From UHGV virus genome UHGV-0048026: a stretch of DNA of 44,553 nt; one strand, written 5' to 3'. The notes below the pieces were generated by a model. The model was not told where the DNA came from and ran no database searches. It was given only the letters and a program-made list of their open reading frames with translations. The position numbers were made by a program, and so were the translations under genes. Position 1 is the stretch's first letter; each line of letters begins with the position of its first letter. Origin of the DNA: a virus. Of this stretch, positions 26,967 through 32,053 are shown in pieces.

Positions 26967-27042
26967 TGGTGCCGACTACCGGAATCGAACTGGCGACCCG
27001 GTGATTACAAGTCAGTTGCTTTGTCTGCTAAGTTAAATCGGC
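26967..27042 (-). tRNA. tRNA-like sequence, anticodon loop CUUGUAA (UGU, Thr-type) with mismatched stems; possibly pseudo-tRNA
   Basis: 76 nt, 3 nt from tRNA-Gly; good acceptor stem (GCCGATT/AGTCGGC), GTTCGATTC T-loop and CCA, but only 3 of 5 anticodon-stem pairs and mismatches in D and T stems. Confidence 0.4.
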
Positions 27043-28410: not shown

Positions 28411-28434
28411 TAAAAAGCCTTCACTGCGGAAGGC
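28411..28434 (-). terminator. putative intrinsic terminator overlapping the stop of the 65-aa gene
   Basis: minus-strand GCCTTC-CGCAGT-GAAGGC hairpin followed by UUUUUAAUUU. Confidence 0.5.
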
Positions 28435-28618
28435 GTCTGTAACAACCGAACTGATAATCTGCCAGACCCGCCATAACAAGCTGAGTCAGTATTAACTGGC
28501 AGCGTTCGCGTGAAAGGTAAGTATTCTGCGCAATTTCCCCGACGGTCGCTGGTTCGGTGACACTTAATTCATTAAATACCACTCTGGCGGTTTCGGTCAT
28601 ATCCTGCTGTTTTAGCAT
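28421..28618 (-). CDS. small hypothetical protein (65 aa), possible winged-helix regulator
   Basis: ORF with SD AAGGA; own terminator; divergent from porin gene before IS5 insertion; fold assignment is a guess. Confidence 0.45.
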   Translation of the reverse strand: MLKQQDMTETARVVFNELSVTEPATVGEIAQNTYLSRERCQLILTQLVMAGLADYQFGCYRRLPQ

Positions 28619-28875
28619 GTCTTTTTCCTTTTCTGGTTAACGTGACATACCAATAACTCTTGTCTAAAAAGCCAGCAAGCTGAAAGACCGGTATTCGCAA
28701 CCACCAGCGCATTTAACGTCCTGTACCGCTTTTCGGGCACAAAAAAAACCGCTCATCGGCGGGTTTAAGCTGTGTGACGTAGTAATCACTCTTAACATCA
28801 TATTTAAATTTTTACGTACGTAAACCTGTACGTATAACTTTATATTATAAAAATGCAACAACTATAATATTTTAG

Positions 28876-30070
<1,195 letters not shown>

Positions 30071-30220
30071 TTAGATATTTTAGATATTTTAGATATTTTA
30101 GATATTTTAGATATTTTAGATATTTTAGATATTTTAGATATTTTAGATATTTTAGATGTTTTAGATGTTTTAGATGTTTTAGATGTTTTAGATGTTTTAG
30201 ATATTTTAGATATTTTAGAT
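30071..30220. repeat. 9-bp tandem repeat array, about 16.5 copies (TTAGATATT x9, TTAGATGTT x5, TTAGATATT x2, partial)
   Basis: perfect head-to-tail 9-mers read directly from sequence; first unit supplies the IS5 target duplication; array ends about 180 bp upstream of porin ATG. Confidence 0.95.
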
Positions 30221-30399
30221 AAATACTGCATTGAAAATTATCACCAATATTTAACACCACACATAAATGTGATATTGATCACACTATAAACCCTTAAATA
30301 AACCCCATATCTTGAAATAACAGTACCGATTAGATGTATATTTAAGTTGCAGCGACATCATTTTTTAATAATAGTTCCCAAAAGGACTAAGGATTCATA

Positions 30400-31482
30400 A
30401 TGAAAAAATTAACAGTGGCAATCTCTGCTGTAGCAGCATCAGTATTGATAGCTATGTCCGCTCAGGCAGCTGAGATTTATAACAAAGACAGCAATAAATT
30501 AGATCTGTACGGAAAAGTTAATGCCGGGCACTACTTCTCCTCTAACGATAAACACGATGGTGACAAAACTTATGCTCGTCTGGGATTCAAAGGTGAAACC
30601 CAAATCAACGATAAACTGACTGGTTTCGGTCAGTGGGAATATGAATTCAAAGGCAACCATGCTGAATCTCAAGGTTCCTCCGCAGACAAAACCCGTCTTG
30701 CGTTTGCTGGTCTGAAATTCGGCGACTACGGCTCCATCGATTATGGTCGTAACTACGGTGTAGCATACGATATCGGTGCATGGACTAACGTTCTGCCAGA
30801 ATTCGGTGGCGATACCTGGACTCAAACAGATGTATTCATGACTGATCGCACCACAGGTGTTGCAACTTATCGTAACAACGACTTATTTGGTCTGGTTGAT
30901 GGTCTGAACTTTGCTGCTCAGTATCAGGGTAAAAATGACCGCACTGACGTAACTCAAGCTAATGGTGATGGTTTCGGTTTCTCCACTACTTATGAGTATG
31001 AAGGATTCGGCGTAGGTGCAACCTATGCTAAATCTGACCGCACTAATAATCAGGTTATCTACGGTAACAACAGCCTGAATGCATCTGGTCAAAATGCTGA
31101 AGTATGGGCAGCTGGTCTGAAATATGATGCGAGCAACATCTATCTGGCTACTACCTATTCTGAAACCCAAAACATGACTGTTTTTGGTAAAAACCATATT
31201 GCCAACAAAGCACAAAACTTCGAAGTAGTTGCACAATATCAGTTCGACTTCGGTCTGCGTCCGTCCGTTGCTTACCTGCAATCTAAAGGTAAAGACCTTG
31301 GCGTTTTTGGTGACCAAGATTTAGTCAAATATGTTGATGTAGGTGCAACCTATTATTTCAACAAAAATATGTCAACTTTTGTTGATTACAAAATCAACCT
31401 ACTTGACAAAAATGATTTCACCAGAAATCTTGATATAAACGCCGACGATATTGTTGCTGTCGGTATGGTTTACCAGTTCTAA
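30400..31482 (+). CDS. outer membrane porin, Lc/NmpC (OmpC/OmpF family)-like, intact
   Basis: 360-aa ORF with signal peptide [39 protein letters not shown] mature N-terminus and C-terminal ...VYQF; SD AAGGA 7 nt upstream. Confidence 0.92.
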
Positions 31483-31669: not shown

Positions 31670-32053
31670 TCAATAACACCTAACAACTTCGCGATCCATC
31701 TCGAGACGAACATCCAATGCCATCAACATTCCTTCGACTATTCCTTCAGCCTTCTGAAGTTTTTTTCCTATATATCCATCAGAACAATGATGCTTACAGG
31801 CCAGTGCCATGAACGTCATACCAACCACATAATAATCTATCAGCAAATCATGCAAATCACTGTTGTTCTTTTTCAGACGAGCCATGCAACCACAGATAAC
31901 CATTGCGTCATCATCACAACATTGCGGGCGTGACTTAACCTTTGACGGAATCAGTCCTTTGAATCCCGCAGCAATCGGTGACCAGGTAACATCCTCGTGG
32001 TTATTTGCCACCCATGCCCCCCAACGCTCAAGAACCATCTGGATATCACGCAT
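31670..32053 (-). CDS. late-gene antiterminator Q-like protein (small, DLP12 QuuD-type)
   Basis: 127-aa ORF, Cys/His-rich ([16 protein letters not shown]...ACKHHCSDG), located last in early-right operon immediately before a TTGACT -35-like element; family call from recollection. Confidence 0.7.

Follow-up and report, generated by a model that had tools for sequence, protein, structure and literature searches.

What is a tandem array of 9-bp units doing upstream of a porin gene in a prophage? Could it be a device that tunes a surface protein, a row of protein-binding sites or a coding repeat, or is it DNA that simply slips? The stretch of DNA analysed here (44,553 nucleotides, hereafter the window) is identical in sequence to part of the finished Escherichia coli SE11 chromosome (NC_011415.1/AP009240), and is a lambdoid prophage of that strain. 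TRF reports a single array at 30071-30221 with a period of 9, 16.8 copies, 98% matches, no indels and a score of 267, by far the strongest TRF repeat of the 44.5-kb window. Read directly, the array (30071..30221) consists of nine copies of TTAGATATT, five of TTAGATGTT and two more of TTAGATATT, followed by a partial TTAGATA, which makes 16 complete units and 7 bp of another. Its GC content is about 14-20%. Exact matches to TTAGATRTT number 16, all head-to-tail at 30071-30214, where 0.36 +/- 0.58 are expected from 100 shuffles. Both readings agree with the initial annotation on the 16 copies and on their blocks of nine A-type, five G-type and two A-type units, and correct it on the end of the array, which is at 30221 and not at 30220.

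Which genes flank the array? On its right is an intact porin gene (30400..31482, plus strand; 360 aa) that matches Pfam Porin_1 and carries the PGAP name 'porin OmpC'. Over the ~95 bp before this gene, conservation with the sequence upstream of PA-2 lc is high; this stretch contains the predicted core promoter and leader (30305..30399, plus strand), with the conserved segments ATCTTGAAATA ... GATTAGATGTATATTTA ... ATTTTTTAATAATAGTTC. Between array and core promoter is a predicted CRP-type site (30265..30286, centre 30275.5) with two perfect half-sites, TGTGA (30268-30272) and TCACA (30279-30283), separated by N6. It is aligned with the CRP site annotated upstream of PA-2 lc (J02580.1); the left half is weaker in ETEC1749 and PA-2 (CGAGA and AGAGA), and TCACA is invariant. 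Beyond the porin follows the gene for an antiterminator Q of the Q21 family (31670..32053, minus strand; PF06530; PDB 6jnx/6p18, E 1e-8). We thus find an OmpC-family porin gene between Q and the late genes, in opposite orientation and with a CRP-type site upstream, which is the arrangement of Lc/NmpC-type morons. The likeness to PA-2 lc and DLP12 nmpC extends to the protein (87% identity with PA-2 Lc), the conserved core promoter, the CRP site at the same position and the setting of the gene, which lies between Q and the late genes and runs against the direction of late transcription. What sets SE11 apart is the array itself, as PA-2-type upstream regions are without it. One core-promoter segment, GATTAGATGTATATTTA (30330-30346), contains TTAGATGT, the first 8 bases of the G-variant unit; in AT-rich DNA this match may be due to chance.

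To the left we find a promoter-like TTTACG-16-TATGAT (28797..28824, minus strand), a candidate PR'-like late promoter, and a predicted intrinsic terminator made of a hairpin and U8 (28741..28766, minus strand) that would lie ~25-50 nt past the presumed start. A 14-bp palindrome, TTTACGTACGTAAA, overlaps the putative -35. The same slot holds GGAATTCC in phiP27 and GCGTACGC in Stx2a_1447, a different palindrome in each phage. The terminator is conserved in SE11, phiP27, Stx2a_1447, SfV and PA-2, with fold z-scores that are not significant, and in SfV the same terminator is annotated directly downstream of Q. The leader is common to the aligned phages except SfV; those that share it have, or were assumed to have, a Q21-family Q. 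Between Q and this module the cargo changes from phage to phage: SE11 and PA-2 have a porin, phiP27 has a GIY-YIG nuclease, and Stx2a_1447 carries two hypothetical genes. The leftward unit opens with a 65-aa gene (28421..28618, minus strand) that shows a weak TrmB/wHTH-like match; a DNA methyltransferase gene comes next, and after it a tRNA gene. It is from the fit to the published late cassette of Q, PR', pause element, terminator and late genes (bioRxiv 10.1101/651190) that we infer a late promoter here. The module at 28741-28824 is probably a Q-dependent late promoter/terminator, and the porin probably a moron inserted between Q and PR'. If the leftward module is indeed a late promoter, the array would fill the spacer between two divergent promoters. 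Further left, an Rfam tRNA match of 43.7 bits (26970-27042, minus strand) adjoins tRNA-Gly; it receives no ARAGORN call and is unannotated in SE11. Alignment to the UMNF18 tRNA-Thr shows several substitutions, located in the D-arm and in the anticodon-stem/variable region, and the match looks like a decaying tRNA-Thr gene.

Is the number of units fixed? The upstream allele occurs in 2 of 5,426 complete E. coli genomes, SE11 and UMNF18. We read copy number in 12 assemblies, namely these two and ten more found via contigs that encode an identical porin or an identical Q; contigs collapsed as 'similar places' (5 and 12) were left out. UMNF18 (L002; L005 is an identical prophage) has two full units and no IS5. 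Three full units each are present in L046 and L052, five in L028, which ends with TTAGAC, and six in L045, the first of which is TTAGATGTT. L050 (GCA_049820365.1) also has six, and here all units and the terminal partial one are of the type TTAGGTATT, not TTAGATATT. Eight full units each are found in L024 and L051, nine in L048, and eleven in L026 and in L027, the latter with one TTAGATACT unit and a terminal TTAGAC. SE11, with its three blocks and an IS5, has sixteen. Copy number therefore varies between isolates in whole 9-bp steps (2, 3, 5, 6, 8, 9, 11 and 16), as predicted by slipped-strand or unequal-exchange dynamics. The initial annotation had proposed such variation and had named an invariant repeat number across isolates as evidence to the contrary; on that point the survey shows the number to vary.

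How fast are units exchanged? Three SNPs just right of the array define four flank haplotypes, with lengths of 8/9/11/16, 5/11, 3/6/8 and 2/3 units. Several lengths inside each haplotype imply at least seven independent length changes. The flanks have hardly moved. Six assemblies with an identical porin were compared over the adjacent 1.8 kb and show 0-1 substitutions, and the 1820 bp right of the array (porin and part of Q) are free of mismatches among SE11, L024, L026, L029 and L031. Between L024 and L027, which have 8 and 11 units respectively, 6.5 kb contain 5 substitutions. Whole 9-bp units are gained and lost far faster than the flanks acquire substitutions, and the units are homogenised by turnover. 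Since copy number differs within haplotypes while the flanks are near-identical, the array behaves as a hypermutable VNTR with unit turnover, and judged by these alignments it is a bona fide one. The block structure, which had been taken to suggest past expansions, does reflect local expansion: G units occur only in SE11, where five are adjacent, and once in L045. This G block and the homogenised array of L050 are the products expected from repeated local expansion and contraction. The complete replacement by TTAGGTATT in L050 implies contraction and re-expansion, or conversion. Most of these copy numbers come from short-read drafts, which are biased against long arrays; three short-read contigs with an identical porin (L029, L030 and L031) stop inside the array, so that drafts probably contain too few of the long alleles. 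In every array-bearing allele the porin is intact and the CRP-type site perfect.

We consider it fairly probable that the array is a VNTR born of slippage, either near-neutral or weakly modulatory, which lies in an AT-rich spacer between divergent promoters and doubles as a target for IS5. Slipped-strand mispairing or unequal exchange would have enlarged a proto-repeat of 2-3 copies. This would have happened in a lineage-specific form of the very AT-rich spacer that separates two divergent transcription units of the prophage, with the putative Q-dependent late promoter/terminator on the left and, on the right, the promoter of a lysogenic-conversion porin of the Lc/NmpC type with its CRP-type site. 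The array would have no dedicated function, and its consequences would be physical by-products. Longer arrays would mean more H-NS-type AT-rich DNA that melts under supercoiling, and this could weakly modulate either promoter; the array would also present multiple YTAR copies in the type of context that IS5 is reported to prefer.

Near-neutrality is suggested by the rarity of the allele, its dispensability and the lack of unit conservation. Among 80 IMG/VR phage porin loci, one carries the array, and this one is the UMNF18 prophage. Upstream of most of the other loci the sequence is PA-2-like and contains a stable 11-mer in 1.9 copies, CAACAAATAAC, and in more distant porin prophages (ETEC1749, WAT, L047 and L053) the slot of the array is taken by diverged, non-repeated sequence. 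Relatives with a non-repeated slot, together with the rarity of the allele in complete genomes and phage loci, indicate that the array is dispensable. Scans for the junction pattern in viral, metagenome and species-representative genome collections returned only a prophage identical to that of UMNF18, the other matches being unrelated. Against near-neutrality, selection for length variability could keep units perfect and arrays as long as 16 copies.

How did the IS5 come to lie at the edge of the array? The element is complete (28876..30070, minus strand; 1195 bp), encodes a transposase at 29022-30002 on the minus strand, and is bounded by 16-bp inverted repeats, GGAAGGTGCGAATAAG ... CTTGTTCGCACCTTCC. 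A TTAG target duplication surrounds it. The right copy (30071..30074) forms the first 4 bases of array unit 1, and the left copy (28872-28875) the last 4 bases of a left array remnant, ATATTTTAG (28867..28875), that IS5 has cut off from the main array. IS5-free alleles have a single TTAG at the insertion point, where ATAATATT or CAACAACTATAATATT runs directly into TTAGATATT. As the 9 bases left of IS5 (28867-28875) are in repeat register, IS5 interrupts the first unit. The initial annotation was right to place the IS5 at the left edge of the array, but this is not mere abutment, the first unit being split; its identification of the TTAG in each unit as an IS5 YTAR target is confirmed by the duplication on both sides of the element. 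Of the 17 TTAG tetramers that the array offers, the first received the insertion in SE11. SE11 has the longest array and is also the sole isolate with IS5 among the assemblies with this locus. In K-12, IS5 interrupts the 3' end of nmpC; in SE11, it lies instead upstream of the porin.

IS5 is reported to favour Py-T-A-Pu within destabilised AT-rich DNA (PMC5493358). We estimated duplex stability by nearest-neighbour free energy, which is a proxy and not a full SIDD model. By this measure no other duplex in the window is as unstable as the array, with its 100-bp mean of -0.97 versus -1.44 +/- 0.095 kcal/mol per step, a difference of 5 SD. The array slot is the window minimum at 50, 100 and 150 bp, even in the two-unit allele. 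Both features of an IS5 target are thus found in SE11, the YTAR duplication around a complete element and an easily destabilised AT-rich context, the latter by the nearest-neighbour proxy and not by SIST. Other structural readings of the array found no backing. The single-strand DNA MFE is ~0 on both strands, which speaks against a hairpin or cruciform, and no Rfam family matches the array. Phased A-tract curvature was set aside by reasoning: the T4 tracts recur every 9 bp and not every 10.5, so that each unit turns the bend by ~51 degrees and the bends cancel over 7 units.

Could the insertion activate a neighbouring promoter? IS5 insertions at glpFK, bgl, flhDC and fucAO (PMC5493358, PMC2753651) share with SE11 the TTAG duplication, the least stable duplex and a position upstream of a CRP-associated promoter. 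In activating insertions the 3' bend/IHF end is proximal to the promoter and the ins5A promoter distal (PMC2753651). The SE11 element, unlike these, is reversed relative to the porin and ~330 bp from its ATG: the 5' end of ins5A (IRL; start 30002) faces array and porin, and the 3' end faces left. We therefore discarded a glpFK-type activation of the porin, the orientation being opposite to the activating one with IRL porin-proximal. The end with activating potential faces the leftward promoter; the 3' bend/IHF end, the part that activates glpFK, flhDC and fucAO, lies ~86 bp upstream of the presumed late-promoter start. Is the array, then, an AT-rich, supercoil-absorbing upstream modulator of the late (lysis) promoter, which IS5 replaces or overrides in SE11? 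The original left edge of the array is 47 bp beyond the putative -35, and the element is oriented towards this promoter as in activating insertions (PMC2753651). Yet the late promoter itself is a prediction, the late modules of PA-2, phiP27, Stx2a_1447 and SfV do without an array, and late transcription is mainly governed by Q antitermination at the downstream terminator (bioRxiv 10.1101/651190). We consider a role in late transcription quite improbable.

Does repeat number instead set the level of the porin? The array had been thought to alter promoter spacing. It is not situated between the hexamers, however: it ends 44 bp upstream of the CRP-type site, ~90 bp from the conserved core promoter and 179 bp from the ATG, and, lying wholly upstream of both CRP site and core promoter, it cannot change the -35/-10 spacing. 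A contingency or tuning locus might work in other ways, with which a position upstream of the CRP-type site is compatible. The tract could shift an upstream element, in spacing or phase, with respect to the CRP-dependent promoter, or change how strongly H-NS silences it; alternatively, a promoter further upstream could read through the array and make it part of a long leader. The first mode has a precedent in the TAAA tract of Neisseria meningitidis nadA, which likewise precedes the core promoter of a gene for a surface protein. There, length changes alter the spacing of distal elements and not that of -35 and -10, operators and IHF sites flank the tract, and effects on expression have been demonstrated (PMC2791445). 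In SE11, by contrast, the unit is 9 bp long, no flanking operators were identified around the array, and IS5 cuts off the left flank, putting 1.2 kb between the array and everything leftward. Each unit adds 9 bp and thereby shifts the helical phase between the divergent promoters by about -51 degrees; the observed array lengths of 25, 34, 52, 61, 79, 88, 106 and 151 bp show no preferred helical phase.

For the second mode, the precedent is Haemophilus influenzae hmw1A/hmw2A, where multi-copy (>10) repeats of 7-9 bp, as in SE11, precede an outer-surface protein gene and offer a graded potential. The 7-bp hmw repeats control expression from the transcribed leader between promoter and start codon (PMC2424069, PMC8262952, PMC12721329), whereas the SE11 array, at most a candidate leader, lies upstream of a CRP-type site. 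The best sigma-70-like match of the region, TTTATA-18-TATAAT at 28839-28868 on the plus strand (10/12), has its predicted start at the IS5 insertion point, which is the left edge of the array, and IS5-free alleles would transcribe the array from it towards the porin. However, promoter-like sites are no more frequent in the region than in shuffled sequence (5 versus 6.8 +/- 2.6), and this site is not conserved in the array-less allele and has an altered -10 (CATAAT) in L050. In favour of tuning is the real and recurrent length variation of an easily melted, AT-rich array directly upstream of an intact, CRP-linked surface-protein gene with a perfect CRP-type site; against it stands a rare allele, with nearly all related porin prophages working without an array. 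On balance we regard a tuning locus as possible though unlikely. The particular version in which high-frequency repeat change makes this an E. coli contingency locus, tuning the CRP-controlled porin via H-NS occupancy, supercoil absorption or phasing, appears to us distinctly unlikely.

Might a specific DNA-binding protein, of phage or host, recognise the units in the manner of iterons? Many identical direct repeats would suit such a function, as the initial annotation had suggested, and the unit may partly resemble AT-rich nucleoid-protein motifs. The data point the other way. The unit drifts (A, G or C at position 7, and a GGT variant) and is replaced wholesale in L050 by TTAGGTATT; the 9-bp period sets successive sites on different faces of the helix; a 13-mer search with 2 mismatches found no copy outside the array in the 44.5-kb window; and copy number is unconstrained between 2 and 16, with almost all relatives, including nearly all related porin prophages, lacking the array. 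Unit drift and wholesale replacement, the period, the lack of a second copy and the near-absence in relatives together make an array of specific sites highly improbable in our estimation. We also considered OmpR, as the complement of the G-units, AAACATCT, would match an ompC OmpR half-site. This reading was discounted: the G-units are derived and essentially confined to SE11, and the orientation is opposite to that in ompC. NmpC/Lc was historically found in ompR-defective backgrounds, which we likewise count against an OmpR site.

Is the repeat translated? PGAP annotates a 77-aa 'hypothetical protein' across the array (WP_000457920.1, ...LDILDILDI...; 30056..30289, plus strand). This ORF starts within the IS5 inverted repeat and runs through the array. 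No Pfam family matches it, a collection of 15 billion proteins does not contain it, and L026, the one IS5-free allele examined, lacks a plus-strand counterpart; the annotation is spurious. On the minus strand, an MQYL(SKI)n ORF has an ATG with GGTGA 9 nt upstream, and its length tracks copy number. It is broken by a nonsense change at codon 2 in L050 (CAG to TAG). That either the (LDI)n frame or the (SKI)n frame is a real gene seems to us scarcely credible.

The locus most closely resembles the intergenic minisatellites used in VNTR/MLVA typing. It shares with them perfect head-to-tail short units, whole-unit length polymorphism among near-identical strains, internal variant blocks, homogenisation, and short-read assemblies that break at the array. 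It differs in that the SE11-type locus sits in a rare prophage allele, present in a small fraction of E. coli. The locus is thus a further bacterial VNTR and a further IS5 target, and literature searches on the 9-mer and on nmpC tandem repeats did not find the allele, nor did one on Lc porin regulation bring up anything within the literature covered. It provides a highly polymorphic marker within one prophage lineage and a natural example of IS5 in a multi-copy YTAR target within the most meltable DNA of its prophage. It is also an array that breaks short-read assemblies and has given rise to a spurious annotated protein. Repeat-based tuning is typical of Neisseria and Haemophilus, and hardly known in E. 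coli. If repeat number were to modulate the porin or the late promoter, this would be a rare E. coli case of repeat-mediated surface-protein tuning. The porin is a lysogenic-conversion gene affecting permeability and phage susceptibility, and if repeat number tuned it, lysogens would vary heritably and reversibly in outer-membrane permeability and phage-receptor display.

Scans for the repeat pattern recovered these 9-mers in viruses and bacteria that are unrelated, where they form short arrays; many lie in long open frames, and no array is homologous to the E. coli locus. Arrays of 4-11 units of TTAGATATT or TTAGATGTT occur in Helicobacter cetorum (L136), Colwellia polaris (L141), Paenibacillus wenxiniae (L140) and Yersinia pekkanenii (L143). 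None of the four is homologous to the E. coli locus, and several are without a long open frame; that of Y. pekkanenii ends ~12 bp before an ATG. Among PA-2-type porin loci, one phage genome (L059, IMGVR_UViG_3300029745_000299) carries an exact 15-bp duplication, two copies of GCAGTGACATCATTT, in the otherwise conserved leader/core-promoter region of its porin gene.
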